Part shown: positions 1,102 through 54,900 of the stretch, one piece after another
How the letters are laid out: each line of letters starts with the position of its first letter
Numbering within the stretch: position 1 is the first letter of the stretch
Virus record (IMG/VR): IMGVR_UViG_3300032213_001974
Location: 1-61,885 of that record
DNA from: a virus
Taxonomy: Duplodnaviria > Caudoviricetes
Length of the DNA: 61,885 nucleotides
Direction: 5' to 3' (one strand)
Notes under the pieces: model-generated
Database searches by the model: none
What the model was told of the DNA's origin: nothing
The model's input: the letters and a program-made list of their open reading frames with translations, nothing else
Translations under genes and position numbers: made by a program

Positions 1102-1232
1102 GCCTTTCGTACTTGCGGCTTCAGCCCGCCCAGTTTGAGTCCAAAGACTTGGCTGGGCTCTTGCTGCGTCTATCACGTTCTCTGAGCCTGTGCGCTCCTC
1201 CAGATTCTCCAGAAGCAGGCCATTGAAATAGG

Positions 1233-1304
1233 TGCTCTCTGAAGGAATCGAACCTCCATTAGCCGGGTAGAAACCGGGAGTCCTATCCGTTGAACGAAGA
1301 GAGC
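1233..1304 (-). tRNA. tRNA-Arg(UCU)
   Basis: acceptor GCTCTCT/AGAGAGC, D-arm GTTC-AACGGATA-GGAC, anticodon loop TT-TCT-AC, T-arm GGAGG-TTCGATT-CCTTC; CCA not encoded. Confidence 0.85.
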
Positions 1305-1542: not shown

Positions 1543-1953
1543 TCATTTTCCGATGGAGTCAACGAAGCGCCAAGCTTCTTTCTCCTGCTCGCGCACCCAC
1601 TTGTTCGGGTCACGAAAATCAGGGGCGACATACATTCGCCGCTCAGGCCAGTAGCGGTCAACACGGGGAGGACGCTCCGCTACTAGCGTGTGCTGTGTTG
1701 GGGTGGCGACAGGTGCCGGGCGCTGGGACAAAATCACTCTCTGCGCTTCGCATGCAGGCAGTGGTGCAGGAGGCTCGCTGCGTTTTGTGGCGGGTTCCGC
1801 CGATAGCGTCAAAGACACCAAAGCCAAGGTGAGCAGCCCGCGGAGGAGAAAGCCAAAGGCAAAGCTGAACAAGCAGGCGAGAGGTATGAGGGCATCGACA
1901 AGGCGGAGAGGTTCGCCAAAAGATGGGAGGAACTTGGAGCGCGTTACAGGCAT
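1543..1953 (-). CDS. hypothetical membrane protein
   Basis: hydrophobic N-terminal segments; start moved to ATG 1953 because a promoter sits directly upstream. Confidence 0.6.
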   Translation of the reverse strand: MPVTRSKFLPSFGEPLRLVDALIPLACLFSFAFGFLLRGLLTLALVSLTLSAEPATKRSEPPAPLPACEAQRVILSQRPAPVATPTQHTLVAERPPRVDRYWPERRMYVAPDFRDPNKWVREQEKEAWRFVDSIGK

Positions 1954-1989
1954 GGCGGGACTATCGCACGAAAACCGCGGAGCCGTCAA
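1954..1989 (-). promoter_or_regulatory. sigma70-type promoter (extended -10), leaderless
   Basis: TTGACG-N18-GATAGT-cccgcc-ATG with TG one base upstream of -10. Confidence 0.55.
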
Positions 1990-2040
1990 CACAAAAGTTG
2001 CGCCCGCTCCGCCGACAAAACCTAGTAGAACTGCGCTACT

Positions 2041-2145
2041 AAACCGCTACACTACTATAGAGGAAGGAAAAAGTTTACGTTCCCCCTGCATACATGTGCG
2101 TAGTCTCTTATTCTTTTTAGGCGGAGCCCTGTAGTGTAGCGGTTT
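2041..2145. repeat. inverted-repeat-bounded element, copy 1
   Basis: AAACCGCTACACTAC...GTAGTGTAGCGGTTT (15-bp perfect IR) around a 75-nt core shared with 36734-36829. Confidence 0.9.
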
Positions 2146-2303
2146 CGTCGATCGACTCGCTTACCCGCTACGCCCCGCCGCTCTAGGCGAAACCCGGATT
2201 CAAAACTAATCAGGAATCCCTTTGAAACGATTGTTGGAGACACGAATCCGTTATTAGGAATTCCTAATTCGTGACTCGTGATTCCTGATTAGTACTTCTC
2301 AGG

Positions 2304-4061
2304 TCATTCATCCAGCAGCATGCTGTGGTGTGACTGGCTAATGACATCCAGTTTTTTGTAAGTATAATTTTTCCTAAGCACGGCCATCCCGTCGTCATTT
2401 TTTATCGGTTCCACAGCCAGAAAACTGAACCGTTCGCGGGCCAATTCGAGCATGATGAAGCCAGCATCCGCCAAGTCGGGCGAGTGTCCCATTCGCTTTT
2501 TGAAGTCCGCCTTGCTCTCTACCTTCATCCTCAATCCGCTGCTCCCCTTTACTGTTTCGTAATTCCGGGCGCACATGTCCTTCGCCATTTCGTTGGGGAT
2601 TCCCCGTAGCTGGCGGCAGCGGATCAGCTCCTTGCCTACGAACCAAAGCTCGCTGACACGGTTGGCGTAGAGTTCTTTCGCCTCGCGCCTGTCATTCATC
2701 GAGACGCGCTTGGAAGAGGCAGACCCTTGGAAGTTCACGCGCAGGATCTGAGGCGACCACTCTGTTGCCAGTACGTCACAGAAGGGATTGCCCGCACTGG
2801 TGGCGTCAACTGCGAGGTTCTCTGGCAGGATGCCCCGCTTCTCGCAGTGCGCCTTGACCTGCTGGACAATCTGGAAAGTTCGCGGCACTGCCTTGTTGTT
2901 GGCGTCGTCAAATAGCTTGACGTACTCCTTGAACTGCAAGACGAACTGTCCAAGGTTGTCGTAGCCCAGCTCGCCGAACATCAGCATCGTGTCGTCCCCG
3001 CCGTTTGTGAAAGACGGGTCGAGTGCTGCGACCTTCACGATTCCGGTCAGTTGCTCGGACGAGCAGGCGCTGGATCGGTTCAGCTCTGATTCGGTGTAGA
3101 TGCCTTCCGCCTCGTCAGAGTCGAAAAAGATGGCGCGATACATTCGCATGTAGCCGCGACTGTTCGGACCCATCTGTTCCTTGCTGACTTCCACGCCCTC
3201 GCGGGTAGGGAGGTAGGGATACGGTGGTTCGTCAAAGTCGAAGTTGGGCGACTGCTCCGCGTCAAAGCGTAAGAAAAGCCCACCGTACTTGGTGCGCCAT
3301 TGCAGCGCGACGTGCGGGTCCACGCTGTCCCAGCCGCCTACTGGCTCCGACCACACACCGAAGGCATCAAAGCGGGAGTTCGGGTTGGACGCGGCGCGGA
3401 GGCGGAAGTACGGATTCTGCGTCATGTTGGACAGACCCGCCTGCACGATCGCCTCGGACAATTCTGAAAGCTCGTCGGCGATCAGGATGACACGCTCATT
3501 GTGCATCCCGATCAACTTACCCACGGCATCGCGGGTCTGCTTCTTTTCCGCGGCGATCAGGCGAATGCCTGCCGTTTCAAGGATGGTTCCGTCCGGCGTG
3601 ACGTAGGCAGCTGACCCGATAGAGTCTCGAACCTTGATCGGGATTCCGTCAACGGCATCCAGAAGCTTGATAATCGCACCCCAGATACGGGTTCGTGATG
3701 CCTGAAGCGTGGTGGAGGTAACCAGAACCAGCGTCTCGGAAGGAGCGCAAAGCCATTCCACAATCGCGTAGGCGGCAAGGGTGTAGGACTTGCCCGAACC
3801 AGCAGACCCTCCAAGGGCTAGATACTTCTCACGAACGCAGGCGCGGACTGTCTGCTCCGCCCACTTGTGCTTGACGCAAAGCGGTTTCTCCTGATCGTTG
3901 TTCCAGAGAATGTCAGCGATTTCCCAGAAGCAGTGTTCCCGGACTCCGGGGAACTCGTGGTGGCGAAAAGCGTAGAGATAGGCGGTCAGCACGTTGCATG
4001 GTGCGATGGACAGTCCGCTGATTTCCCAGCTGCCGTCCACTTGAAGTTGAAGTCGGGCCAT
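2304..4061 (-). CDS. terL: terminase large subunit
   Basis: Walker A GSAGSGKS, Walker B ILIADE, SNP coupling motif, RNase H-like ALDPS...GGDD and SPDLAD; likely start ATG 4061. Confidence 0.92.
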   Translation of the reverse strand: MARLQLQVDGSWEISGLSIAPCNVLTAYLYAFRHHEFPGVREHCFWEIADILWNNDQEKPLCVKHKWAEQTVRACVREKYLALGGSAGSGKSYTLAAYAIVEWLCAPSETLVLVTSTTLQASRTRIWGAIIKLLDAVDGIPIKVRDSIGSAAYVTPDGTILETAGIRLIAAEKKQTRDAVGKLIGMHNERVILIADELSELSEAIVQAGLSNMTQNPYFRLRAASNPNSRFDAFGVWSEPVGGWDSVDPHVALQWRTKYGGLFLRFDAEQSPNFDFDEPPYPYLPTREGVEVSKEQMGPNSRGYMRMYRAIFFDSDEAEGIYTESELNRSSACSSEQLTGIVKVAALDPSFTNGGDDTMLMFGELGYDNLGQFVLQFKEYVKLFDDANNKAVPRTFQIVQQVKAHCEKRGILPENLAVDATSAGNPFCDVLATEWSPQILRVNFQGSASSKRVSMNDRREAKELYANRVSELWFVGKELIRCRQLRGIPNEMAKDMCARNYETVKGSSGLRMKVESKADFKKRMGHSPDLADAGFIMLELARERFSFLAVEPIKNDDGMAVLRKNYTYKKLDVISQSHHSMLLDE

Positions 4062-4130
4062 ATTTTTCTTGCAAGGGTCCCGTGAATTGTGCATGTTTCG
4101 AGCTGTCAATACCAGCCTATACAATGACGT

Positions 4131-35770: not shown

Positions 35771-36670
35771 TTATCGAAGGTGTGGAGGCCATGTCGGTTT
35801 CGGGGGTGCTCCGCCCGCAGCAAGGCGGGCTTGCTCGGCGTCATAGGCTGGCACATGCTGCGGGAGGAGAAGGTCGCGGGGATCTGTCGAACGCTCGAAT
35901 TTGACGGGGCATACCGAGATCGGCTCGGGCTCTGGAGCGTAGGCGCTTTCGTAGTTGCCCGCGAGTTCGGCGATCTGGCGCTTGTTGAGGCGGACCTTTC
36001 GCCCGAGATTGTCGGTCACGACGATGCTCCAGTCGTTGCTGAACTTCAGCTCCCGTACTTGCGCTATGTGGCGGTAGTTTGAGAAGTACCGCACTACGGA
36101 GTCGCCAGAGACGTGGAACCCGTAGCCGAGGAAGTCGTCGTGAGACCTGTAGCCGTCATCCGCAGGAAGGTGAGCACCGATAAGGTCGCACCGCCCGTTG
36201 AAGTAGTGAACGATGGCCGTGTTGGTGAGATGGGTGTAGTAGCCCTTCTTCGCGTGCCACACGCGATACCGCCTCTCGTTTGGCATGCTGGCTTCCGTGT
36301 ACGCCACAGGCTTGAGGTTGCTGCGGCGATAACAGTTCCCCGCTCGGTCGAACAAGTTCTTCGGGAATTCGGGGATCTCAAGGAAGGAAATCTCTGAGGT
36401 GCCGAAGCCGAACAGCTTGCCTCGCAAGGTTTGCTGTGACACGACGCGGTTGGCTCCGCTGGCGTGCAGGAGGCGAAACCATTTGTTGTTGGCCGTTTGG
36501 CGAATGGGTTCCTCGGGACCGAGCTTGGCTTTTGGCCCGCGTTTTGACTGCTTCACCCGAATGGGGTGCCCCAGCTCTGTGAAGCGATGGGCGGGGAACT
36601 CGGCGAGTTCGTAAGTCTGAGCGGAGTGTGATCCTTGGGCGACTGTCGGGTCGGTTACAATTTCGAACAT
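35771..36670 (-). CDS. protein with three NUMOD4-like repeats, no nuclease domain seen
   Basis: three units of the form aromatic..EFP..F...G...R...G..R; promoter TTGACG-N18-TAAAGT-cccgcc-ATG (36671-36706). Confidence 0.55.
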   Translation of the reverse strand: MFEIVTDPTVAQGSHSAQTYELAEFPAHRFTELGHPIRVKQSKRGPKAKLGPEEPIRQTANNKWFRLLHASGANRVVSQQTLRGKLFGFGTSEISFLEIPEFPKNLFDRAGNCYRRSNLKPVAYTEASMPNERRYRVWHAKKGYYTHLTNTAIVHYFNGRCDLIGAHLPADDGYRSHDDFLGYGFHVSGDSVVRYFSNYRHIAQVRELKFSNDWSIVVTDNLGRKVRLNKRQIAELAGNYESAYAPEPEPISVCPVKFERSTDPRDLLLPQHVPAYDAEQARLAAGGAPPKPTWPPHLR

Positions 36671-36733
36671 GGCGGGACTTTACCACGAGATCCGCTACCG
36701 CGTCAAGAAGAATTTAAAACAGATTGTCTCGAA

Positions 36734-36829
36734 CAGTACACTACTATAAGAGAAGGAAAAAGTTTATATGCACGTGTACGCATGTGCGTAGTCTCTTATT
36801 CTTTTAAGGAGACAAGGAGTAGTGTACTG
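36734..36829. repeat. inverted-repeat-bounded element, copy 2
   Basis: CAGTACACTAC...GTAGTGTACTG (11-bp IR) around a 74-nt core; 25-nt and 15-nt blocks identical to copy 1. Confidence 0.9.
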
Positions 36830-37020
36830 GTCGCGAAAATCGACGCGGTAACCTGTTCGCCTAGGAGAATAAAACAATTCGCCAAAAATAAACCGAGTCG
36901 TATAGACTCTAGCTAGTTACTATTAAATTATGGTCGCGGTGTATTGCGGTAGAAAAAACTTAGTTACTTGCAGGACAAAATAAACGGGGCTCTGTCTGTC
37001 ATACATTTTACTAGTATAGA

Positions 37021-37049
37021 TTGACCTCTCATTTCTATATGAGTACTAT
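37021..37049 (+). promoter_or_regulatory. near-consensus sigma70 promoter facing the early region
   Basis: TTGACC-N17-TACTAT in AT-rich DNA. Confidence 0.65.
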
Positions 37050-37491
37050 TTAAGGTATCACTTTGGGTTCTCTAAACGGGGCAAAAATGATCCCTAAAAT
37101 AGGCCCTAAGAGGGGAAAAAACGAACCCGGAATCCCGCCTGACGGACCCCGGATTTCGCCCTCACTTTGTAAGCCAAAGCCATCGCCTACCCGCGCCAAG
37201 CCGATCTGAAATTTGCTCGACGATTTTCGCCCGGAACTAAGCAAATCTTACCACAAAAATTATCCAGAAATTACAGAGAAAATTTTTTGTGACCTATATA
37301 CACAACACAACACAACGCCCACGAAAAACTACCTACCCCACCGCCGCCCCATCAGGAACCACGAATCAGGTATCACTTATCACTTACCCTGTATCCTGAT
37401 TCCTTATTAGTGATTCCTGATAAGACCCCCGTCCCTCCCCCCTATGTGAAGGGCGACGATGCCTTTCTTCCAACAAACCAACAAAAGAAAA

Positions 37492-41458: not shown

Positions 41459-42055
41459 ATGACAAGACGACAATGGTTTGAAACTTTGCCCGCCCCCTAT
41501 GCCGAGCGGGCTATCAGGAACGCCGAAAGATACGGCGCGCCACTTGAGGCACCACAGGACAACCTGAGTGGGGCCATAGCCGGGTCCTTTGATTGGTCGG
41601 ATACCCCGGAAGGGAATATCTTCTGGAGAGACGTACATCGCGGAGAACTCCCACCCATCCCCGACGTAACGGAACCTGCGACAGCAGCTTCCGGGCTTCA
41701 GGTCCGCGTGGGTTACAGATACCGGACTCGGGATGGCATGACTACTGGCTACGTCGAACCATCCGGCTGCATAGGCCAACCGTTCCTGTACAGAGTCCCT
41801 GTCGATACCTACCACCTCGTTCGTTTCGTCAGCCCGAACGGAAACTGGATGGGCGATGGGTCACCAAGCGATTACGACCTAGTCGAAGAGATCCCCCCTA
41901 CCAAGAAGATGAAGTATCGCATCACTGAGGTGCGCCACTTCTTCCTCGAAGCAGAGGATGAGATCGAGGCAGACCGGATGTTCCGGGTTGCCAGCAACCC
42001 GGAGCGCAAGTTCCGGATGCACACAGAGGATCGCACGATCCATGATGACGCCTGA
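41459..42055 (+). CDS. early multi-module protein
   Basis: FDWSDTPEG..FW module plus a third G.RY.TRDG domain. Confidence 0.65.
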   Translation: MTRRQWFETLPAPYAERAIRNAERYGAPLEAPQDNLSGAIAGSFDWSDTPEGNIFWRDVHRGELPPIPDVTEPATAASGLQVRVGYRYRTRDGMTTGYVEPSGCIGQPFLYRVPVDTYHLVRFVSPNGNWMGDGSPSDYDLVEEIPPTKKMKYRITEVRHFFLEAEDEIEADRMFRVASNPERKFRMHTEDRTIHDDA

Positions 42056-42104
42056 CTTGTGGCAGAAACAGGAACTGACAACACTAAAAGAAAAAACTAA
42101 TAAG

Positions 42105-43427
42105 ATGAACGTTATTACATACACCACAACCGGAAAGCTTGTCGCCGTTGGTGACACAGTGGAGTTCGACTACCTCACGAAAAGAGAAGCCTACCCCGGC
42201 GACGTGATCGACGACAAGGTCTGCCTAGGCGGAACATGGATTCCGGTATCCGGAACCGTGATTGCCCATAACGGAATCCGGATTCCGTTGTCTGAAGCTG
42301 TTGAAATTACAATCGAAGGAGAAACCAAATACGCCATGAGCACAGAAACAATCGAGATTGATGGAGAGTTGTACCTGAAGCGGGATTGCTTCCGCCTTGT
42401 TGATCACTACCGTGATCGCCGCAGCGGCGGTGATTGGGTAGCGGAGGAACCGGAATACGGCTACGTCTACATGGAAGACTTCGACTGCTGGGCAAACGAC
42501 GAATTGGTTCACGACTGCTACGGCAATAGCTGTGCCTACTGGGACGAAGACGGCGAGTGGTGGCACGGCTGCTGGTACTCGTACGACTGGCTCAACGAGG
42601 AGACCTTCATCTGCGACTGCTGTGGTGACCGCTACAGCAATGAGGAATACGCTGAGGACGGCAACTGCAATAACTGTCACGAACCAGAGACCGGGTTGCG
42701 TTCTTACAACGACAAGACCAGTACGACCTTCCGCCCGGAGAAGGACATCCCCCTGAAGTTCGGCATCGAGCTGGAGGTGGAGTGCTACGACGCAGACGAA
42801 GGAGTCGAACTCTGCGAGTCCATCTTCCCGGACCAGTATGTGGTCTACAAGGAAGACGGTTCACTGGAAGAAGGGGGCTTCGAGATCGTGACCCGGCCCG
42901 ACGCACCCGAGGTTCACAAGCGTATCTTCGCCAAGTTCCTAGGCGACAACCGTGTCCGGCACAATTTGACCAGCTGGAACGGCGGTCGCTGCGGGGTCCA
43001 TATCCATGTCAGCCGCGCGCCGCTCAGTCCTCTGTGGATCGGTCGCATCCTTGTCATGATCAACTCGCCTTCCATGAAGTCGATTGTCGGCAAGGTGTCA
43101 GGTCGGTACAACACGACCTATGCCGAGATCAAGAACAAGAAGCTGATCCACGGCAAGAAGGGCAAGGACGAGCGCAAGTACGACGCAGTCAACAACTCGC
43201 CCCGCCACACGATCGAGTTCCGTCTGTTCCGTGGCACGCTGGTGAAGGAGTCCTTCCTGCGCTACATCGAGTTCGTCGAGTCGGTGCTGGCCTTCACCAG
43301 TCCCGCCACCACCAGCAACCGCGACGTGGCGGAGCCGAAAAAGTATCTTGACTTTGTGTCCTCGCGGCGCAAGGATTACAAGAACTTGTATGAGTTCCTC
43401 AAGGTCAAGTGCTTCTACGAAGCCTGA
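42105..43427 (+). CDS. putative amidoligase (COOH-NH2 ligase) 1 with zinc ribbon
   Basis: FGIELEV, KEDGSL..GFEIVT, CGVHIHVS, KYDAVN, TIEFRLFRGTL; CxCC/CxxC upstream; likely start 42105. Confidence 0.85.
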   Translation: MNVITYTTTGKLVAVGDTVEFDYLTKREAYPGDVIDDKVCLGGTWIPVSGTVIAHNGIRIPLSEAVEITIEGETKYAMSTETIEIDGELYLKRDCFRLVDHYRDRRSGGDWVAEEPEYGYVYMEDFDCWANDELVHDCYGNSCAYWDEDGEWWHGCWYSYDWLNEETFICDCCGDRYSNEEYAEDGNCNNCHEPETGLRSYNDKTSTTFRPEKDIPLKFGIELEVECYDADEGVELCESIFPDQYVVYKEDGSLEEGGFEIVTRPDAPEVHKRIFAKFLGDNRVRHNLTSWNGGRCGVHIHVSRAPLSPLWIGRILVMINSPSMKSIVGKVSGRYNTTYAEIKNKKLIHGKKGKDERKYDAVNNSPRHTIEFRLFRGTLVKESFLRYIEFVESVLAFTSPATTSNRDVAEPKKYLDFVSSRRKDYKNLYEFLKVKCFYEA

Positions 43428-43516
43428 TCCCTTACTAGAAATAACTGATAAGACGCTGCGGGTGCAGCAGAAAACACCCACCAACATCTGAACTAAAACA
43501 AACTACTACTACTACT

Positions 43517-44572
43517 ATGTGTCTTGCACTCTACAAACCTGCCGGTATCGCCCCTGATTGGAACGCCCTCGAAACGGGAATGATGTACAACTCAGACGGA
43601 GCTGGCTTCGCTGTCGCCGTCGACGGTCAACTCATTGTCGAGAAGGGCTTCTTCAAGTTCGAGCATTTCAAGAAAGCGCTCGAACCATTCGGCGAACACG
43701 CAGCGATCATCCACTTCCGCATCTCCACCCACGGCAAGGTCAATCAGGCCAACTGCCATCCGTTTGACATGCGCACCTTCGGTGACTCGGGCGGCACCCC
43801 GCTTGCTGTCATCCACAACGGCATGTTCTTCGAGGCGTCCAACGACAACCCGGCGTTCAGCGATACGTGGCACATCTGCCGTGACATCCTCCACCCGATG
43901 TGGCTCAATGACGAGGGCTACTTCAAGCGCCCCGAGTTCATTCAGATGGGCGACATGATGGTCGGTCGTTCCAACAAGCTGGTGTTCCTCAATGCCAATG
44001 GCGACTTCGCCATCTGGGGCGAGGGCAACGGTCACTGGAACGGTGGCGCGTGGTGGTCCAACCGCAGCTACGAGGACTGGTCTGTCGCCGATCCGCGTGG
44101 TGCTTATGGCTCGCGCAAGAAGCAGTCTTGGACAAGCGTCAAGAATCCAGATGGCTCTTGGAGCTACAAGGCTATCAAGGACGAGGCTGAGTCTCCACTT
44201 GTAACCGAGGACCGAAAGGTTATCGGGTATGCCCCAGCATCCAAGACCCTGTCCGAGCAGGACATCGACCTCATGGAAGAGGACGAGTGGAGAGACTACC
44301 TGTCTGCGAGGACACTCAAGGAATCCGAAGGTGGTTGGGGCGTGGACGACGAACCGGAAGAAGAGGATATCTACAACTTGATCCTTGCTGAGATCGGCGA
44401 GGAGAACGAGTGGATTATCGAAGAGCTGTCCGAGTGTGGCTACACGATCAGTGATCTGGAGATGATGGCTTCCCGCAAGGACGGAGTCGGAGCATTGAAG
44501 GACGAGCTGGAAAGCATCTACGGAATCGCAATCCCGAACAAGGAAACCCTGAAGCGTATCTCGCACGTATGA
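43517..44572 (+). CDS. class II (Ntn) glutamine amidotransferase with acidic tail
   Basis: Met-Cys start, N.DGAG, HFRISTHG, NCHPF, HNG, SDT. Confidence 0.9.
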   Translation: MCLALYKPAGIAPDWNALETGMMYNSDGAGFAVAVDGQLIVEKGFFKFEHFKKALEPFGEHAAIIHFRISTHGKVNQANCHPFDMRTFGDSGGTPLAVIHNGMFFEASNDNPAFSDTWHICRDILHPMWLNDEGYFKRPEFIQMGDMMVGRSNKLVFLNANGDFAIWGEGNGHWNGGAWWSNRSYEDWSVADPRGAYGSRKKQSWTSVKNPDGSWSYKAIKDEAESPLVTEDRKVIGYAPASKTLSEQDIDLMEEDEWRDYLSARTLKESEGGWGVDDEPEEEDIYNLILAEIGEENEWIIEELSECGYTISDLEMMASRKDGVGALKDELESIYGIAIPNKETLKRISHV

Positions 44573-44884
44573 AAACAATCCTAACCGCATGGCTGGTCAT
44601 CTGTGTCCTGCTGGTCCTCGTCACCGGGGACCTGCGGGCGCTGCTCCCAGCGGGTGTATCACTCGCCATTATCCTGATAACCAAAGCATGATCTATCACA
44701 TCATCCCAATCAACGACATCAAACCACACACTCCATCACCTGACTGTTTCTGCCAACCAGTTCAATCAGCAACGGAACCCTTCGTCTCCTTCGACCACAA
44801 TGCGGCGGATGGGCGAGAGGCTACCGAGCGACGAACCGGGAAAGCAGTGAAGGGAAAAGGTTGGACCATTACAAAACAGACACC

Positions 44885-45145
44885 ATGAACCTGAAAGGTA
44901 TACCAACTCCTGTAACCAATCGCAATAAAGGGCGCATCAACCTTCACTACGTATTAATCAAGGACCCCAAGGACGGGACTTTTGTTGGGGCCGACGTATG
45001 TGCTGACCTAGAACGACGCGCCGCAGTATGGCGATCTATGGCAGCGCGTGGGTACGCTATCGCCATGGGGGACGCTGACCCGCCTGACATTGATGACTAC
45101 ATCACCGACTACAACGAGCTGACACTACAACTTGACACACCATGA
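44885..45145 (+). CDS. early hypothetical protein
   Basis: ATGA overlaps with neighbours. Confidence 0.5.
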   Translation: MNLKGIPTPVTNRNKGRINLHYVLIKDPKDGTFVGADVCADLERRAAVWRSMAARGYAIAMGDADPPDIDDYITDYNELTLQLDTP

Positions 45146-45399
45146 AATACGAAACGCTAGACGCGATTGTCGTCACCACTCCAGACAAGCGGGAATCCCT
45201 GCGCCTCTCACTCACCGAATCCGTTGCCGGGCATCGGGCGCTGGTGTGGTCTTTCCCATTCGGGAAGACCACCTCGTTCGAAGCGGCACATGATCCGGAG
45301 AAAGCATCAGCTGTCAACTACGCCATGGCTTCCATGCTCGGGGATGACGGGTCCATGCTTGAGGATCTCGATACGTTCACCAACCACCACTGCAACTGA
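45142..45399 (+). CDS. early hypothetical protein
   Basis: ATGA overlap, operon position. Confidence 0.55.
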   Translation: MKYETLDAIVVTTPDKRESLRLSLTESVAGHRALVWSFPFGKTTSFEAAHDPEKASAVNYAMASMLGDDGSMLEDLDTFTNHHCN

Positions 45400-45400
45400 T

Positions 45401-47647
45401 ATGCCAGAAGAACCTACAATATCTCTACTCAGAGCGAGTGCGGTGTACGATAGGCTGATAGCGGATTCTTGCAATGCCATACTTACTGGCATTGGTAGTT
45501 CGTTTGCTAGCACATTGGAGCCACGGCAGCAAGAAATCCTCGACCCCGCACCTGTAATCAACTACGACGTATGGGAAGAGTTTGAATGCAATGACAATGC
45601 ATACTTTTATGCAGCCCATGTCCCTGTGGTATCTGACAGGTGCCTTGTGGTATCTGATGATGGCCCTATGGTATCTGACGAGTACCTTGTGGTATCTGAT
45701 GATGGCCCTACGGTCTATGATCCAAGTTTCAATGCAGTAAGAGCCGACACAACAACACCAGCAACCGCAATGCTAACTATGAAATACATATACGAATACG
45801 AAGGCCGACCAGTCATCATTGGTGACCGGATCGGGGAATACACAATCGCGGATTTCAGCGGAGACCTAGTTCGTGTAGAAGAAGTCTTGCCGGAATCTGT
45901 TCGTTACGAAAAGTACACAAACTGGGCGTGGGCGCGCCTTCTAGGCGTCATACCAAACCCTATCCCGGAATCCGGAATCTTTAATCGCATTACAGGTGAG
46001 AGGATTTCCTGCGAAGCTGGGACTGTACTGCCTGACGGAAGTACCATCCAGTGGTTTGACGAGAGTAGCAAAAACATCTACTGCGGAATCATGAATCATT
46101 CCGGACTCGTAAGTAGCACGTTCACTGCTGACTCTCTGACCAAGATGGGCTTGGAGATCCGCCACAACATGACTGCGGATATTATCAAGCAGGTACCACG
46201 ATTCCTGCGCAAGGGAGTTACCTGTATCAAGGTGGGTAGATCGTTCGTGCCAGCCGAGCAGGCAGTCTGGAGTCGCGGAGAGAAGAAATACATTCGCCTC
46301 GACAACGCAGTGCAGATCGACCTGACTTGGATGTCCAAGGATAACCCGAAGCTGGTCCAGTTTCTGGATGGGAGTTACGGGATGCCGGGTTCCGGGTACG
46401 CGATTACCGGAGGTCCGAACGCCGGGCAATTCGTTCGTAACCGGGCAGAGCGTGCGCAATGCGGCGATAGGTGGTACCCAGTCGTAGAACTGATTCCGGT
46501 TTACTACCGGGATGTTGAGCCTTGGGATTACCGCTTGACTGAGCCTGTCAATGACGACGGCTTTGAAAAGGTCAATGGTGAGTGGTGCTTGGCTGGTTAC
46601 TCGGTAACCCTAGCAGACGGGTCCGTGTGCGCTCGCCACCGCGCGTACCGGGTGCTCACTGGTTTTCGACCAGAGCCGCTAAGCGGTTGCACGGAAGAGT
46701 GGATTCTTCGCGAGACACTTGAAGACGTGGCGCGGTACTGCCCGGAGTGTGGGGCTTGGTCATTGCTCTCCTTTATGGCGGGTAGCGAGTGCAGGAGCTG
46801 CGCCGCCCGTAGTCGCACCCGCATCCGCAACTACTCGAACAACTACGCCAATAGTCTGATTCCTGAAGAGGACATCCCGATCAAGTTCGGCATCGAACTC
46901 GAAGTGGGGACCGACAAGGGAACCGGCATTGAACAGTGTGCGACCACCATGGCGGACGCACTCAGCGATCGTGAGGACTTTGCGAATTACGGAGTCTTCA
47001 AGATGGACGGGTCGATTCAGTGTGGCGGATTCGAGGTGGTGACAAGACCGGACTCGCCTGCCGTCCACAAGCGGATCTGGTCCAAGGCTCTCGCCGTGCC
47101 GAAAGTCCGCGAGCAGATGTCCAGCTGGAGCAACCGTTACTGCGGCATGCACATCCACGTCAGCCGCGCACCGCTAAGTACTCTGTGGATCGGGCGTATC
47201 TTGGTGACGATCAACTCCCCGGACATGTCCTCCTTGGTGACGGCAGTCGCCGGGCGCGGGTCAATGAATTACGCGCAGCGTGAAGACAAGCGCCTAACCA
47301 GTGGCAAGAGCCGCTACGGCGACAGGTACGAAGCGGTCAACACTACTGGGCAACATACCATCGAGTTCCGGATCTTCCGTGGCACGTTGGACCCCAAGGG
47401 GTTTGTCCGCAACGTGGAGTTCGTTGAAGCGGTGCTCGACTTCACCCGCCCTGCGAGCACCAGCCTGCGGGACATCGGCAAGGTCGAGAGCTTCGTGGAG
47501 TTCATCAAGAAGTCCCGCAAGGCTTACCCAGTCTTGTTCGACTTCCTGACCACCAAGGGATTCATCGACGACCCTAAAGTGGAATACAGGGCGGGCAAGA
47601 AATCAGTGCGTGTCCAGCGACATATGGATGAGCCTACCCCGTTCTAA
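45401..47647 (+). CDS. putative amidoligase (COOH-NH2 ligase) 2 with long N-terminal extension and zinc ribbon
   Basis: FGIELEV, KMDGSI..GFEVVT, CGMHIHVS, RYEAVN, TIEFRIFRGTL; CPEC...CRSC; start uncertain (45401, 45770 or 45779). Confidence 0.85.
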   Translation: MPEEPTISLLRASAVYDRLIADSCNAILTGIGSSFASTLEPRQQEILDPAPVINYDVWEEFECNDNAYFYAAHVPVVSDRCLVVSDDGPMVSDEYLVVSDDGPTVYDPSFNAVRADTTTPATAMLTMKYIYEYEGRPVIIGDRIGEYTIADFSGDLVRVEEVLPESVRYEKYTNWAWARLLGVIPNPIPESGIFNRITGERISCEAGTVLPDGSTIQWFDESSKNIYCGIMNHSGLVSSTFTADSLTKMGLEIRHNMTADIIKQVPRFLRKGVTCIKVGRSFVPAEQAVWSRGEKKYIRLDNAVQIDLTWMSKDNPKLVQFLDGSYGMPGSGYAITGGPNAGQFVRNRAERAQCGDRWYPVVELIPVYYRDVEPWDYRLTEPVNDDGFEKVNGEWCLAGYSVTLADGSVCARHRAYRVLTGFRPEPLSGCTEEWILRETLEDVARYCPECGAWSLLSFMAGSECRSCAARSRTRIRNYSNNYANSLIPEEDIPIKFGIELEVGTDKGTGIEQCATTMADALSDREDFANYGVFKMDGSIQCGGFEVVTRPDSPAVHKRIWSKALAVPKVREQMSSWSNRYCGMHIHVSRAPLSTLWIGRILVTINSPDMSSLVTAVAGRGSMNYAQREDKRLTSGKSRYGDRYEAVNTTGQHTIEFRIFRGTLDPKGFVRNVEFVEAVLDFTRPASTSLRDIGKVESFVEFIKKSRKAYPVLFDFLTTKGFIDDPKVEYRAGKKSVRVQRHMDEPTPF
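45620..45724. repeat. 21-bp tandem repeat x5 with 42-bp higher-order period
   Basis: core C(C/T)TRTGGTATCTGA; units 2 and 4 differ at one base. Confidence 0.9.
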
Positions 47648-48076: not shown

Positions 48077-48826
48077 ATGAAACACGCACAAGAACTGAAG
48101 ACCCTACTCGATTCCGGAATCACGATTCAGGAAGTCGCATCCCGGTTGGGGATCAAGGTAAGCTACGCTAACATGATCCGAAGCAGGATGAAGATCGAAG
48201 CCCCTGCCTGCTCCGAAACCAGCAAGGCCCGCCGCATCATGGACATCGCCAAGTTGATGGGCGAGGGCAAGTCGGACTGGGAAATCGCGAACGCCTTGGA
48301 CATCTCCGCCCAGAGGTTGGCCTACCTCCAGCTGGGCGGTGGGTTGCGTGAACCACGCAAGCGTGGACGAAAGCCCAACAGCGCACAGCGCCCGGAGCAG
48401 ATCAAGAAACTGCTGGGCGAGGGCAAGTCGGCACCTGAAGTAGCCAAGGAACTCGGCATCAAACCGAACACCATCTATCAGGTGTGCAGCCGCAACAAGA
48501 TTCCGATCCCCAAGTCCTCGTCAGCGAGGAAGAAAGCCCTCGATGCGGAGATCATCCGCCTGCGGGAACTTGGAATCAATGACGCGGGAGTGGCGCACAT
48601 CACTGGCCTCAACCCGGATCTGCTCTACACCTACCAGCCGAAGGGCAGAGGCCGACCCAAGAACAGCAACGATGAACTGGTGATCGAGGCGCTACGTCGA
48701 GGCGATAGCGTGGACGAGATCAGTCTTTCGTTGAACCTGATGCCGGGAACGGTGATCAATTATGGGCGAAGACACGGGTTCTCGTTCAAGAAGAGTTATG
48801 TCCTTAAAGAAGGAGGTGTGGCATGA
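48077..48826 (+). CDS. multi-HTH protein with AT-hook-like motifs
   Basis: four to five L..G.S..EIA..L.I units; RKRGRKP and KGRGRPK. Confidence 0.75.
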   Translation: MKHAQELKTLLDSGITIQEVASRLGIKVSYANMIRSRMKIEAPACSETSKARRIMDIAKLMGEGKSDWEIANALDISAQRLAYLQLGGGLREPRKRGRKPNSAQRPEQIKKLLGEGKSAPEVAKELGIKPNTIYQVCSRNKIPIPKSSSARKKALDAEIIRLRELGINDAGVAHITGLNPDLLYTYQPKGRGRPKNSNDELVIEALRRGDSVDEISLSLNLMPGTVINYGRRHGFSFKKSYVLKEGGVA

Positions 48827-48869
48827 ACCCGGAATCACTTACCCCGCACTAGACGAATAACCACACATC

Positions 48870-48907
48870 AAAAGCGGCACCTGCTTCACGGCGGGTGCCG
48901 CTTTTTT
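48870..48907. terminator. bidirectional intrinsic terminator between convergent blocks
   Basis: AAAAGCGGCACCTGC-TTCACG-GCGGGTGCCGCTTTTTT. Confidence 0.9.
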
Positions 48908-48911
48908 GCGT

Positions 48912-51900
48912 TCACGGCTTCAGCACTTGAACTGCCGGGTACTTGAGCGACTCCGCTACGATCAGTTTCAGGCGACCTGCGCCATTGCCATCCGCCTTCT
49001 GGCCTGCGTCGTAGTAATCCTTGAGGTCATCGCGGGATGGAGTCCAGCGGTCAGTGACGTTATTCAGCGCCTTATTCAGTCGGTCCTTGGAGAATCCGGC
49101 CTCATTACTTGTGCTGAACAGCTGACCTCGGGTCATGCCCATATTCTCGTATGACCGCATCATTTCAGCAGCACGCCCGAATGCAGCGACTCGCGCGCGG
49201 TTGGCTTTCTGAACTGCTTCGGTAATCTGGTCTCCATCAAGCGGAGATCGGGATTTCAGGATTCCAGTTGCTCGGCGGGACTGCGAGTAGGTCAAGGCTG
49301 CACTGCGGATCGCCCGATTGTGGTAGGTGCTGACATCTTCAACGCGGGGGCGAACTCCGAGCAGTTCTCCAGCGAAGATCTCAAGGCGATTGCTGGCCTT
49401 GTCGTCCTCGGTTACTGGCTTCTTAGAACCCTTCTCGCCCGACATCAAGTTCTCCACGAAGCTAGCTACGGGTGGTTTGTACCCTTGGCTTAGCGCATAT
49501 GTAGTGCGGGTAATCAGCGCCTCAAGGAAAGGAGTGTCTCCCGTGGTGATCGGATTGCCCTTCTCGTCCTTGTTGTTGAGTGATTCCATCGCCGCTCCAA
49601 TCGCGATTTGGTCGCCAATCAGCTGGCCAGTCACCCATTTCGCGGCTACCGCGGGTATCTCCGCTTCCTTACCAGTGCGAATCAGTTCATATGACCGCAT
49701 GATCAGGTCAGTGTAGATCGCAGTCGGGTTGATGAAGGTCATGTCCAGCGAGCGGATCTTGTCACCTACCTGCGTGAAGTAAACCGTGTTGCCCTTCTGC
49801 CAGTCGGCGAGGCCCTCGCGCAGGGCTTGGTCGCGGCGAAGCTCGTCGCCGTTGCGCGGCAGGAAGTAGTTCAAGATGCTGTCCGCTGTTACGTCCTCGT
49901 CGTCTCCGAAAGCGGCGGCGAAAGCGAGGCTGACTACGCCTGCCACAGTAAGCGGCATCAGCGTGAGCGTGGTCAGGAAACCAGCAAGGCGCTGGTTTCC
50001 TCGCTTGCGGATGACCTCGTTATCGCTGGCGCGTTCCTCGCTGGAGAGCTTAACTGTCTCGATCATGACGCGGGCGACTTCCGCCTTGAAGCGTGCGAAC
50101 GGCGCGATCAGGGAACCGAGGCCGGACTTGGTGAAGCTGGTGACTACCGGGAAAACCTGCGAGTGAGTCTGCGTGGTGCGCAGGACTTTGGCCGCGGCTT
50201 CCTTCTTGAGGCGGGCTTCCGTCCAAGTCTCATCACCTTTGTAGGCTTCACGCAGGACTGCAAGTTCGTTCTCGAACATACCGATGCGGAGGTTGGACGA
50301 GATCGTGTTGTTCAAGTTCGCACCGAAGGCGAGGGTCTTGGGCACGACCCCAACGGCTTTCTTCCAGTAGGCTTCGCCCTGTGCGGCGAGCGCGCTGCGC
50401 TCCACCTTGTTGAGTGCGGCTTCCGCGTCCGTGGCGAGGCCAGCAATCTGATCGCGCAGCGCCTGCGTGCTGGACTCGTCACCGAGTACGCCGAGTTCGA
50501 TAAGCTCGCGGATGTACGCCTCGTGCTCCCCCGGAGTCTTGGCGAAAGACGATCCCTTCGACTGGAACCACCGCTTAAAGTTGAGTGGGTTTAGCAGTAC
50601 ACCTTGGAGCGGAGCAAAGAATGCAAAATCGGACACGGCATTTCTGGTGTAGAATCCGACCGACAGCAGTGTCTTTGCCGCCATCGCGCCTCCCGCAGCT
50701 GCCCGCAGGACCTTGATACCGTTACGCACCGCCTGATCGGCAGTGTCTTCCAGCTCGGGGGAGCTTTTTGAGAAGATCGTATCGAAGGCTTTCTTGAACT
50801 CTGGTGGGCCATAAGCTCCATCGAGCGGTGCGTCGTACGCTGGGTTCGCCCCGGAGAGTTTGACGTAGCCCTTCTGGTTGGCGACGACCGGGTCCTTGGT
50901 GATCCATCCGCCGTCAAGCCCAGCCTCAAGCGTGCTTGTCAGCAGGTCCTGATTGGCGGCGAGCTTGGAGACGCTGATCAGCGAACGAGTTGCCGCTTCA
51001 ATAGGGTCGGTGATTTCTCCGAGAGCGGCGCGTAGCCAAGCCGGGAGTTCGCTCTTCTCCATGAAGCGACCAAGCTCCTGACGCAGCTCATTGGCGCGAG
51101 CAGAGCGGACTACTGGTTCCGTAGCTCCTTCCTCGAACAACGCCTTCTCGACATCCACTGCGAGAATTTGCCCAGTGGCGAGACTCGCCGCGTTTTTGTC
51201 CATGCTGGCGACGAACTCGTCGAACATGACTTGAGCCCGAGCAGGCGTGTCACGCAGGACCGCAGCCTTGATCTCTGCTGGCGAGAACTCCGGATGCTCC
51301 TTCTTGATTTCAGCTTCCAGTGTCTTGCTGGCCTTGTTGGTGTAGTGCCTGAGTGCGTCGTCGCGGATCTTCTGGAAGTCGATCATGGAGTTGCCGACCT
51401 GCGCGATACCAGCGGACTTCAGCAGCTTGGTCCAGCCAGTCTGCGTAAAGGCATAGTAGGAGCGTGTCAGGTAGATCCCCATGTTGGCGTCGATCACGGC
51501 GCGGATATCATCCGGCGTGAACGGGTTGGTGGCGATCTTTCCGGAAGCCTTGTCGATTGCGGCGCGTGCGTCCTCGATTACCTTGACTACCTTCGGTGGC
51601 AGCTTGGCTTTCGCTTCGGCGGCTGCGGCGCGGGCCTTGTCGGCGATCAGCTGATATTCCTTGACCACGCGACTCTTATGGCGTGCAACCGAATCAGCGA
51701 TCCCCTTATCATGAATCAGCTTGTCCGATTCAGTCTTTGCGGAATCCTCGAATGTCTTCTCAATGTTCGCGATCTCGCCGTCCAGCACCGCTTCGATCTG
51801 GGCCATGCGCGCCTTGGAGATCACCAGTCCGGTGTCGCCCATCGCGTTGCGGACCAGTGTCAGGTTCTCATCGTTGATGACTCCGGACTTGATGAACGCC

Positions 51901-54900
51901 TGCATCTGGTTGTTGAACTGTTCGGCGATGCGGGCTACCAGACGCAGCTGGCTGTCACGACTTCCAACCAGCGCCTTGACGGAGCTTGGCAGGTCGCCCT
52001 TGAACAGGCGGCTGAACTTGCCACCCACGTCGTAGGAGTTGTCGCCGTAGTTCTTCACAGGCAGGCTGAAGCGTCCGGTGACATCGTCACGGCGAAGCAC
52101 GTTGAGCTGCTCCTCGAAACCAGTCGGCTCGGCAGGCGACACCAACTGGTCATAGACGCGGGTGGCACGCTGCACTGAAGCGGCGATCTGGCTGTCTTCG
52201 ATACCGCGGATGCGGGTAGTCAGCTTGGCAATGAACGCTTCGAGCGCACGCAGCATGCGGGAAAGTATGCCGGGGTTGCGGCGATAGAACGAGTAGTCGC
52301 TTTCGCTGATGAAACCGCTGCGGGCCTTCTCGATTTCCATGCGGACGAACTCGTCAGCGAGTTCGCGGATGCCGAGCTTTCCGGAGGCGCGGTCTTCCCG
52401 GATCCTTTCGAACCGGGCAGCTGCGTCCGGGATACTCGCCGAGTAGTAGCGATCCGCTACCTCCCACAGCTTGGCAGCTGGGAGGGTGGTGGCGATGTAG
52501 TCGATGTCCGCATCGCTCAGGGTGCTGAACGCGGCGAGGTGGGCGATCTCGTGGTTGACGGCAGCACGGACAAAGCGGCGGGCGTTGAAGTCATCCAGTC
52601 CAGCAATCGCGTTGGCGAGCAGCTGTGGATTCACGAACACGGTATCAGGAGAGCTGGGTCGGGCGACCATCATTCCTCTCGCTGATTCGTCATACTGAAT
52701 CGTGATTCCGGATGGGGATTCTTGGGTGAGCAGCTTGGACATCTCGTCCTGCTCGACCGTGGTGGCTGTGATTTCTGGAAGCTCCCTGCTTGTCTGCTGA
52801 TCCCGGGACATCGCCACATCTTCGCTGATGCGTGTGCCATAGGGGCGCATGTTCGCCATGCCAACCAGCTTGGTCAGATCGTTCAGCGCCTTGGAGAGCT
52901 GGTCGGTCGGGCTGCCGGTCAGGAAGCGGGTGAGGAAGTCGAGGAAGCGGCGGAAGAATCCACGCTCCGGAGCGGTTTCGTAGATCGCCTTCTGGAAGTC
53001 CGGGGAAGTGAAAGCGTAGCTGACAAATTCCTCAAGTGATGCGAGACCTGCGAGCACCTGCTGCGAGTTGCCGTTGTAGGCGGACTTGATCCGCCCACGC
53101 AAGGCGTCGAGTTTCGCCACCAGCGCACGGGCACCGGCGGAGTCCGGGCTCTTGATCACCGAGACGGTGACCGCGTGGAGCATCTCGTGAACCAGAACGT
53201 CCGCCAGCCCGCGACCGTTGGAAGCGGCGAGGTTGAGGAAGATCGTATTGGATTCAGGAGAGTACTTGCCTGCCCACCCGGTATTGGGGAGGTTGACGAT
53301 CTCGATGTTCGCCTTGGCTAGAATATCGCGCTTGGCCTTGAGGAGCGAAGCAACTTCCTTGAGGCGAAGCGGAACCTTGTCGAGGGCTTCGATGGCGGAC
53401 AGGATGCTACCGCCCCGGAGGCCGAGGTCTTCCGCGTCCAGCAGGTTGTTGCGGAGGTTGGTTGCCGGATCGCTTGGAACCGCAGCAGATTCAAAGACTG
53501 CCTTGATGTCCTCGCCCACCTTGAAGTTGCGCTTCTTGGAGGCCAGCAAGGTCTGAAGCGTGTCACCGAAACGACGGAACTGTGCCTGCTTCTCCTGCGT
53601 GTAGCGGTTGTCGATCTCGCCAGCGCGGGCCGCGGCAAGCATGGTGCGGAGAACCGGGCGGGTGTATGTTGCGCCAGAGGGCAGCGAAATGACGGAGCTG
53701 TCGCTGTCCTTAGCTTTGATGTCTCCGGACTCTACAAGGCTACGAAGTTCTGCTGCCTTCTTCTTGTACTTCCTGCGGGTAGAAGCAGAGTAATCCGGAT
53801 TAAGTGCGCGCTCGTTAAGCTCCGCGATGATGCTTCGTGCGTCTTCTAGGCTGACGAACTGACTGGGAAAAACTTCATAGCGCCCCGCTTTGGATTCTAC
53901 AGATACTCCTTGCGGCTCTTCTGGAGTGAAGAACCTTTCAGGAACTGGGCGTGAGACTACGGTGCGACTTGGCCCCGGTTCGGATGGGAAGAGGTACTTC
54001 TGCATCTCCACCATCTCGGGCGAGAGAGTCTTGGACTTAGCTGCGCGATCCGCTTCACGCTTGGAAGCAAGGTCCTGCTTCAGTCCGATCTGCGCAGCTT
54101 GTTCGCGAACAAAGGCTTCGAAGTCGGCGATTGGCTTGAGCGTGGCTTCCACGACGCGGCGCATTTCCAGACCCTTGTTGGAGAGCAGGAACTGCTTGGC
54201 GCGCTGGGCTGCGGCGCGCATGTCTGCGGACAACTCGTTGCGGAATACGTCAATGAGCGCTTCTGTTGGCAGTGACTCTGCTTTGGTTACACCAAACGTA
54301 GTAGCGGCACGCTCGAATGCTTTGCGAACCTGTGGATTGGAGTCGATGTTGCTAGTTACCGCAGTGATTACTTCATCTAGCGAGGTTGGCTTTTCAGACT
54401 CTTCAATCACGTCATAGATAGTGGCCACTGCTTCTACAGCAGCGTTGTCTACACCCATGTAGAGGGGCCTCGCAATAGCTGCGTACATACTCGCCGCAAG
54501 TTCATCAGCGTCTACCTGTGAAAGGATAGCTGGAGTATCCGCGGCTTCAACACGAGCAGTCGGATCAATGAAGCTGCCTTGCTCCTTGATACGGTTGAAG
54601 TACTTCTTCTCGACTTGGGCGATAGTAGTCTTCAGCGAATTCGGGCGGCGGATCGTGGTACCATCCGCCAGCTTCTTGAAGAAGCGGGTGTTTACCCCTT
54701 CGTCTGTGCCGTTGAGTTCTGACACAAGACGATCGGCGTAGACCTTCATCGCCTGATCGGCGTTGAGCTTGGTCTTGCCCTTGGTGCTGAAGGTCTTGAT
54801 AAGCTGCGCCTGAGCGGCAGGGCCTACCTGCTTCAGGAGAAACTTGACTGGGTCCCGGCCAGCAGCGAGTTGTTCTTCGACCCGGATAGCCAAGGCAAAC

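Follow-up and report, generated by a model that had tools for sequence, protein, structure and literature searches.

The complete virus record IMGVR_UViG_3300032213_001974 of IMG/VR (Duplodnaviria; Caudoviricetes), analysed here over its whole length of 61,885 nucleotides (nt; hereafter the window), carries two co-oriented copies of a quasi-palindromic non-coding element of about 120 nt, designated copy A (2033-2153) and copy B (36722-36841). The record has a 117-nt terminal overlap (1-180 / 61715-61885), which falls in a 9-nt tandem repeat of about 20 units, far from both copies; its length is therefore ambiguous and the record ends are uninformative on the physical termini. A crude map of open reading frames (ORFs), complemented by PHROG, Pfam and NCBIfam scans, revealed four gene blocks, the first of which is the leftward large terminase (TerL) gene (2304..4062, minus strand; PHROG phrog_2, E 4.4e-14), whose true start was placed at the ATG at 4062, since alignments with homologues begin only at about residue 24-50 of the longest ORF. 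A rightward replication block (~4.1-18.5 kb) encodes an RNA ligase, a Snf2-type helicase, an exonuclease, DNA polymerase A and a protein of 711 amino acids (aa) with a DUF5906 NTPase domain. The leftward structural and lysis block, from 36,670 down to ~18.7 kb, contains a portal-sized 739-aa gene, tail-like genes and an endolysin gene, and the rightward early block (~37.4-48.8 kb) encodes a pentapeptide protein, two amidoligase-like proteins and a protein with multiple helix-turn-helix (HTH) units. A further leftward block extends from 1953 across the record ends to 48,912 and harbors genes for a 136-aa hydrophobic protein, tRNA-Arg and an HNH endonuclease, together with a 3,745-aa ORF.

Copy A is located between the TerL stop and the promoter of the block running from the 136-aa gene to the giant gene, its arm end at 2153 being 151 nt past the TerL stop, and copy B has the structural-block promoter on one side and, on the other, a non-coding stretch of 617 nt that is richer in AT. 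Each copy lies upstream of the only recognisable promoter of its leftward virion-gene operon, outside its transcript. The first gene to the left of copy A (1543..1953, minus strand; leaderless start, ATG read as CAT at 1951-1953) encodes the 136-aa protein with a hydrophobic stretch, and the first gene to the left of copy B (35771..36670, minus strand; leaderless start) encodes a 299-aa protein of no known family and heads the portal/capsid/tail/lysis block. Neither protein has a PHROG or Pfam match, and comparison of the two with each other confirmed that they are unrelated, as had been stated when the duplicated element was originally predicted.

Each copy consists of two 23-nt arms, longer than first described, which enclose a core of 75 nt (A) or 74 nt (B). 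The left arm of copy A (2033..2055, perfect part 2041-2055) is complementary to its right arm (2131..2153, perfect part 2131-2145) at 19 of 23 positions, and that of copy B (36722..36744, perfect part 36734-36745) to its right arm (36819..36841, perfect part 36818-36829) at 20 of 23, counting Watson-Crick pairs. The inner arm sequences of the original prediction, TACACTAC...GTAGTGTA, were recovered at 2048-2055 with 2131-2138 and at 36737-36744 with 36819-36826, enclosing 75 and 74 nt respectively, and the copy-specific outer arms that it reported, AAACCGC/GCGGTTT in copy A and CAG/CTG in copy B, are indeed perfectly complementary. Likewise present, at the predicted places, are the identical core blocks GAAGGAAAAAGTTTA (2063-2077 / 36752-36766) and CATGTGCGTAGTCTCTTATTCTTTT (2093-2117 / 36781-36805), the shared motif CATGGCGGGACT in the same orientation (1951-1962 / 36668-36679), CGTCAA, that is minus-strand TTGACG (1984-1989 / 36701-36706), and ATCGAC to the right of each copy. 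On the plus strand, the core of copy A (2056..2130) is composed of a purine block (invariant at 2063-2077), a small hairpin and a pyrimidine block (invariant at 2093-2117), and that of copy B (36745..36818) has the corresponding invariant blocks at 36752-36766 and 36781-36805 as well as an inner hairpin of 10 bp (36767-36790), after which comes a T-rich run. The cores are polar, with 77% purine across the first 22 nt and a pyrimidine-rich 3' part, and are AT-richer than the genome (GC 0.44 for A and 0.365 for B vs 0.562).

The two copies are 84% identical over 75 nt in a self-BLAST comparison (E 4.8e-12), only the inner 8-11 nt of the arms being common and the outer 12 differing. The arrangement exceeds chance: arms complementary at 19 or more of 23 positions around a loop of 60-100 nt were found in the window at copies A and B only, and at no locus in each of 20 shuffles. 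The motif TACACTAC occurs five times in the window against 0.35 expected, a count reached in none of 100 shuffles.

The exact 21-mer of the core was detected in four stretches of IMG/VR, on two contigs (58,166 and 63,181 nt). The two close relatives of the window carry two copies each, 33.9 and 28.1 kb apart, one after a TerL gene whose product is 89-92% identical and the other before a homologue of the 299-aa gene; together with the window they constitute the close clade, with six copies in all. Homologues of the 136-aa protein, 59-63% identical, occupy the same place in both close relatives, and a 62% identical homologue of the 299-aa protein has the same place in the whole relative G005. 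An earlier two-block pattern retrieved the known four stretches and one chance match (L011). When the pattern was loosened and at least 115 stretches of viral contigs were retrieved (L187-L266 looked over), the matches beyond the known relatives looked chance-like; one small group (L213, L240 and L246) was noted besides them. Further afield, two metagenome contigs (L093 and L099; TerL 65-66% identical) contain a homologous copy A with 21-nt arms of quite different sequence (19/21 complementary) and an 84-nt core, in which the purine and pyrimidine blocks are still recognisable. In L093 (3580-3700, minus strand) a small lipoprotein-like ORF of ~48 aa, as translated by eye, stands beside copy A instead of the 136-aa gene, so the gene beside copy A is replaceable.

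The middle 15-nt segment of the core is A-specific or B-specific across the close genomes, which identifies A and B as orthologous pairs. Several positions are nevertheless common within one genome despite this pairing, which points to concerted evolution. As for the proposal that recombination between the copies would split the circle into two parts, the geometry stands. The public runs listed for this sequence comprise a single DNA run, present as contigs and possibly from the source sample, and no RNA run; in it one contig (27001-46000 compared) spans copy B unbroken and no joint at the element was seen, contigs being unable to show ends or rare forms.

Across the six close copies the arms are complementary at 19/23, 20/23, 18/23 (twice), 17/23 and 23/23 positions, and 13 of the 23 arm pairs have changed on both sides and yet remain paired. 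Overall, 85.5% of 138 cells are paired, compared with 28-44% when the partners are slid. In 500 shuffles the values for paired percentage, double changes and covariation score were never reached and that for further pair types was reached twice, the weight of these controls being limited by the use of six related sequences. Compensation runs from Watson-Crick pair to Watson-Crick pair, with 3 G-U cells in 138 and a single pair varying on one side only, and the mismatches show no wobble enrichment. The 25-nt and 15-nt core blocks are invariant in all six copies as the arms turn over. One copy (L005_B), in which the outer pairing is partly lost, has a right arm similar to the one of copy A in its own genome. 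On this evidence the fold is either selected or continually restored, and the core sequence is strongly constrained. The original prediction of a selected structure or symmetry is thereby well supported: the relatives, whose lack of the element, of arm complementarity or of spacing would have spoken against it, keep all three.

Marine and freshwater metagenomes contain hundreds of TerL relatives. A comparison with 50,697 deposited phage records gave no match to TerL or to the element DNA and, for the DNA polymerase, only ~25% identical relatives, which places the phage family among the uncultured ones. The GTDB genomes yielded one distant TerL relative only (32% identical), in a Phycisphaerae metagenome-assembled genome. 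Where TerL is 51-59% identical, long inverted repeats often occur within 650 nt after it, and 52 distinct inverted repeats were counted across 117 loci, 29 of them with arms of 12-27 nt. Their arms are lineage-specific, and in the interior a variable hairpin is often framed by the inverted pair AAAAAG(T)...(A)CTTTTT. These repeats are candidate homologues, or analogues, of the window element. A covariance model (R1) of the six close copies, run over 81 TerL loci, found only the two close relatives (130 and 128 bits), reverse-strand echoes (E ~0.06) and two matches at E = 2; the distant analogues are thus not alignable to the close-copy model.

Comparison of the window with five whole relatives (G001-G005) showed the element to be the top dispersed non-coding repeat in five of the six genomes. 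G005 carries the close pair. Distant relatives with a diverged analogue (TerL ~58% identical) have two or three co-oriented copies, and within each of these genomes the copies evolve concertedly. G001 and G002 harbor two loci of ~220 nt each, 86-87% identical within the genome, one abutting the TerL stop and one preceding a weak homologue of the 299-aa gene; locus B in these genomes has leftward genes of the same direction on both sides. Each locus of the G001 clade contains five occurrences of a 9-mer, in both orientations, and C-G, T-A, T.G and C.A all occur at one arm position, a picture that looks more like a protein-site array than a base-paired stem. G004 has three co-oriented copies, 94-97% identical, and in its record (that of L064; 1-150, 330-480 and 62413-62920) one element copy, near the early-gene divergence point, is flanked by arrays of two repeats, a tandem palindromic one of 27 nt and another of 21 nt.

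Next to each copy, on the side of the leftward operon, stands a minus-strand promoter of the sigma-70 type. That of copy A (1960..1989) is composed of TTGACG, an 18-nt spacer, a TG-extended GATAGT and 6 nt to the ATG, with 9 of 12 matches in a consensus scan, and that of copy B (36677..36706) of TTGACG, an 18-nt spacer, a TG-extended TAAAGT and 6 nt to the ATG. The -35 box lies 28 nt from copy B and 56 nt from the perfect arm part of copy A, the element being upstream in both cases. The originally proposed TTGACG -35 and gene start are backed by the consensus scan and by three more window promoters of like build, the class (TTGAAT/TTGACG, 17-18-nt spacer, TAnnnT, 6 nt, ATG) being found on the minus strand before 398, 1953, 19662, 32852 and 36670. 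The distance of 6 nt to the ATG implies leaderless mRNAs; other window genes have ordinary Shine-Dalgarno sites, as seen by eye. The reading of the shared 12-mer as gene start plus -10 needs one correction: the -10 boxes are GATAGT (1960-1965) and TAAAGT (36677-36682), of which just the last three bases fall inside the 12-mer.

On the opposite side, the interval between TerL and copy A contains a second, unrelated compound inverted repeat (2205..2293) with 14-nt arms and a 61-nt loop that holds an inner perfect palindrome; it lies 11 nt past the TerL stop, is followed by TTTT on the minus strand and, as judged by eye, probably forms the 3' hairpin of the message from TerL. Motifs of this repeat are found again at 37394-37424 and at other places (repeat families D5 and D17). 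The non-coding stretch of 617 nt right of copy B (36842-37458; GC 0.447) belongs to the lowest-GC part of the genome and contains promoter-like and terminator-like sites facing either direction, among them a rightward TTGACC-17-TACTAT promoter-like site and minus-strand terminator-like hairpins (37155-37124 and 36909-36895); it may hold small transcripts.

Our best guess, offered tentatively and with the odds on the whole against it, is that the element serves replication by folding back on one strand, as a twin origin, priming or fork-control signal. We favour it because it accommodates the DNA-like pattern of the arms, the strand-polar core, the co-orientation of the copies, their concerted evolution, the AT-richer core, the iteron-like neighbours and the precedent of phage SPP1. 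Under this explanation the element would act as folded single-stranded DNA or as an extruded cruciform, the arms would be needed merely to close the fold, and the invariant core would be read by a replication protein, for which the DUF5906-domain NTPase protein of the phage and a host primase or polymerase are candidates. Co-orientation would arise because the same strand turns single-stranded each time, and the neighbouring leftward promoters, firing away from the element, might help to open it via negative supercoiling. The phage encodes its own DNA polymerase A, helicase and DUF5906 NTPase-domain protein. In the window, gene blocks converge at 18.6 and 48.9 kb, near the midpoints between the copies (19.4 and 50.3 kb, respectively).

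Several observations weigh against a role in replication. The idea of two bidirectional origins judged by midpoints fails in G001 (13.1 vs 18.05 and 44.5 vs 47.35), and the GC-skew check suggested with the original prediction added nothing independent, since skew follows gene orientation. The element is not adjacent to the replication genes, and the DUF5906 match covers the NTPase domain only, with no primase or origin-binding domain demonstrated. G003 has the same replication genes (39-49% identical) and a promoter-like site right after TerL, with no twin element, so that presence of the element is uncorrelated with the replication module. Among the 52 repeats after TerL the favoured folding strand is plus in 22, minus in 29 and equal in one, i.e., there is no family-wide preference. 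Finally, in ten of the 11 copies examined on their left side, a leftward gene start or promoter comes immediately downstream, an adjacency that a promoter-control function explains directly and that is incidental under replication.

A more specific version of the replication explanation, in which the twin elements are a new type of strand-specific initiation signal on single-stranded DNA, is quite unlikely. On the exposed plus (or minus) strand the 23-bp arms would fold back on each other, and a short polypurine RNA primer would be copied from the 3' half of the loop, which is rich in pyrimidines; a purine-rich primer would result from either strand, because the core of each runs from purine to pyrimidine. 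The pair would then organise lagging-strand or concatemer synthesis in this family of uncultured marine and freshwater phages.

Ranked next, and possible without being probable, is a structured RNA: a small plus-strand RNA transcribed from inside the element or from immediately to its left, or a folded part of a longer transcript, that would act on late-operon expression, for example the 3' end of the minus-strand TerL message serving as an RNase III site or stabiliser. Folding is consistent with it, since each strand, taken as RNA, outdoes its shuffles (z-scores -3.3 and -6.2 on plus, -4.1 and -5.6 on minus); the corresponding DNA values are -2.2 and -6.1 on plus and -2.5 and -4.8 on minus. 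The consensus fold is better on the plus strand (-35.4 kcal/mol and 39 predicted pairs vs -27.4 and 33 on minus), where six inner pairs are kept through one-sided C/U or A/G changes with G-U as one state, a preference that rests on few events, as the inner blocks are nearly invariant. The arms, at 19-23 bp, would suit a double-strand RNase, yet they carry no strand signal and are almost without G-U, a DNA-like pattern that counts against an RNA. In copy B, the 10-bp inner hairpin followed by a U-rich run is terminator-like on the plus strand and was flagged by a terminator scan (36767-36790, tail GTCTCTTATT); nothing was flagged in copy A, where, as in L093, the inner hairpin has only 4-5 bp.

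A possible start point for such an RNA is a -10-like hexamer, nACnnT, whose end lies exactly 9 nt ahead of AAAAAG in each of the eight copies of the close clade and of L093 and L099. As a plus-strand sigma-70 promoter it was rejected and kept as a weak lead only: it has neither a -35 nor a TG extension, unlike the other promoters of the phage, its variable base is explained by stem covariation (pair 24-98), and a transcript from it would lack the left arm, which leaves the arm covariation unexplained. No promoter was found leftward, by eye, that would take in both arms, and read-through into the element is doubtful given the minus-strand terminator-like hairpins to the right of copy B and the compound hairpin with its T-run between TerL and copy A. 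A likeness to promoters of single-subunit RNA polymerases was dropped, since L093 does not conserve it and the ORFs tested included no polymerase of this kind. Rfam, searched over the whole window at gathering scores, returned only the tRNA at 1233-1304, and over both loci at E up to 5 nothing overlapping the element; ARAGORN identified tRNA-Arg(TCT) at 1231-1304 (minus strand) as the sole tRNA or tmRNA in the window, hence none at either copy. Small peptides in the core were also rejected for either strand, the frames stopping or shifting, by eye, between copies and relatives.

Third in rank, and unlikely, is a control cassette of hairpin plus promoter, resembling the PeSL (promoter-early stem-loop) elements of T4-type phages or a late-activator site, in which the fold-back would insulate or terminate transcription arriving from the right or bind a phage regulator, and the promoter would start the virion operons with the same timing. 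Its attraction lies in position. A consensus-like leftward promoter has its -35 box 28 nt (B) or 56 nt (A) downstream of the copy, promoters were placed alike, by eye, in L093, in G001 (both loci) and in G004 (copies 2 and 3), copy A always follows the leftward TerL gene, locus B of G001 and G002 also follows leftward genes, and the operons so headed hold portal-like, tail and lysis genes and a giant virion-type protein. Multi-copy intergenic repeats in phages are most often regulatory. The genome-specific 8-9-mer repeats in both orientations would fit a regulator that co-evolves with its sites, and the phage encodes a 249-aa multi-HTH protein (48077-48826), whose best NCBIfam match is the HTH of the CRISPR-repeat-binding protein Cbp1 (E 1.6e-12, under the curated cut-off) and which is a candidate binder of the repeated motifs of the genome. 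The spacing to the promoter, however, differs between A and B by 28 nt, which is no whole number of helical turns; the repeated unit in G001 and G004 excludes the promoter; copy 1 of G004 has no leftward gene start beside it; and the promoter right after TerL in G003 comes without a fold-back. Binding of a shared protein would also leave unexplained why the outer arms are copy-specific and yet complementary. Nor does the element look like a canonical terminator: no T-run follows the closed 23-nt arms on either strand of either copy, unlike the phage's own GC-rich terminator with a T-run at a convergent junction. The latter, between the early and giant-gene blocks (48866-48906), is a classical bidirectional intrinsic terminator with a GC-rich stem between an A-run and a T-run.

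A packaging or concatemer-processing site beside the terminase gene, pac- or cos-like or a hairpin that duplicates or resolves genome ends, is improbable. Copy A directly follows TerL in every element-bearing genome, 29 of the 52 distinct repeats after TerL (117 loci) have arms of at least 12 nt, and a gene for an HNH endonuclease follows at a distance of 1.5 kb in the same direction of transcription, HNH genes beside terminase genes being typical of cos-type packaging; a second full copy 34.7 kb away would, however, make the packaging units smaller than the genome, no gene for a small terminase can be identified (copy A has the gene of the hydrophobic 136-aa protein beside it), and the terminal overlap is remote from either copy. 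Least probable of all is a functionless, selfish or neutral palindromic repeat, similar to a miniature inverted-repeat transposable element or spread by recombination and kept palindromic by template switching in replication, for although concerted evolution is visible (including the partly converted right arm of L005_B), G003 lacks the element and the pure Watson-Crick arm pattern fits hairpin-templated correction, the element occupies the same two syntenic places from the close relatives down to a TerL identity of ~58%, its 25-nt and 15-nt blocks stay invariant as the arms turn over, the outer ends of its arms vary from copy to copy, whereas transposons conserve the tips of their ends, and there is neither a flanking direct repeat (by eye) nor a transposase or homing enzyme gene beside either copy.

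Other repeats and genes of the window were recorded in passing. A 32-nt motif with the palindrome CTTATTAG-N5/6-CTAATAAG (family D4) is present in seven copies (37998, 38078, 38745, 40016, 41193, 42081 and 43429), several of them directly before the ATG of an early-block gene, and may be an operator or a translational hairpin. The motif GAATCACTTACCC, together with GAATCAC(G) repeats, has 35 matches with up to three mismatches against 11.7 expected, a count as high being reached in none of 100 shuffles; the GAATCACTTACCC matches cluster in the intergenic DNA of the early region (e.g., 35384, 37377, 38045 and 48832). Two paralogues of 489 and 826 aa with weak Amidoligase_2 matches (41958-47647) share a stretch of 100-123 nt and flank a protein with a weak class-II glutamine amidotransferase match. 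The 3,745-aa ORF (48912-60149, minus strand) has no Pfam, PHROG or PDB sequence match; its homologues in G001-G004 are 24-28% identical over 900-1,700 residues. In a comparison by language-model features it comes nearest, as a lead only, to clusters with the 'polyvalent protein' domains LPD38/LPD39 in its second half (scores 0.96-0.97) and, weakly and below threshold, to those with LPD22/LPD14 in its first half.

The element is outside any Rfam family and is an undescribed cis element in an uncultured, widespread phage family. Being fixed at two places, kept foldable and homogenised within genomes, it likely marks a key step of the infection cycle, either a replication start or switch or a switch of virion genes, and it offers a short, concrete and testable handle on the organisation of these phages. 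If it is a twin origin or priming signal, the two-origin logic of SPP1 would be extended to an unrelated group; if it is a control cassette, it would represent a new form of hairpin-promoter module. Under either explanation the arms are a clean natural example of structure conserved without sequence.

Several known systems share some of these traits. Single-strand initiation signals and single-stranded-DNA promoters (the minus-strand origin of filamentous phages, sso of rolling-circle plasmids and Frpo of the F plasmid) are imperfect fold-backs of ~70-150 nt, formed by one strand, orientation-dependent and intergenic, with structure kept more than stem sequence, in replicons with an obligatory single-stranded stage; the window element has no sequence in common with them, and priming by it is hypothetical. 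The hairpin promoters of the N4 virion RNA polymerase have short stems and 3-nt loops and need that polymerase. The present phage likewise combines a few co-oriented inverted-repeat copies with a giant virion protein, but the arms are of 19-23 bp, the loop is of 74-75 nt, the giant protein, as a lead only, resembles polyvalent proteins and has no RNA-polymerase match, and no RNA-polymerase family was matched among the ORFs tested. Lambda nutL/nutR and HK022 putL/putR are pairs of phage-specific, stem-containing copies, one per operon, with co-varying stems; they lie downstream of the promoter and act as RNA, whereas the window element is upstream of the only recognisable promoter of each operon.

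Of the systems described in the literature, the PeSL elements of T4-type phages are small composite terminator/promoter sequences, in which a stem-loop is combined with a host-type promoter and which are repeated within the genome and recombination-prone between copies (PMC4122927); the composite of stem-loop and promoter and its repetition recall the window element. In the window the fold-back precedes a minus-strand sigma-70-type promoter at a distance of 28-56 nt and does not look terminator-like. PeSLs are small terminator-type stem-loops present in many copies that flank variable genes in hyperplastic regions, whereas the window element is 120 nt long with a conserved 75-nt core and is found at fixed, conserved syntenic places in two copies in the window and four relatives and three in G004, the promoter being outside the repeat in distant relatives. 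The origins oriL and oriR of Bacillus phage SPP1 are two similar sequences of short repeats and an AT-rich unwinding element; one of them sits among the late genes, in a long intergenic stretch with transcription signals on both sides, and is proposed to stall the fork and trigger concatemer synthesis (PMC6316719; PMC3485210). The partial likeness consists in two similar, far-apart cis sequences in one genome with repeats and an AT-richer part. In SPP1 the boxes are directly repeated and a known origin-binding protein binds them, its gene containing oriL; the repeated box of the window is an inverted 8-mer pair only, compared with a 9-mer present five times in the G001 clade, and the window element has 23-nt inverted, copy-specific arms and neither copy near the replication genes. 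The element looks most like twin origins of the SPP1 type or cassettes of the PeSL type, while its anatomy sets it apart from both.

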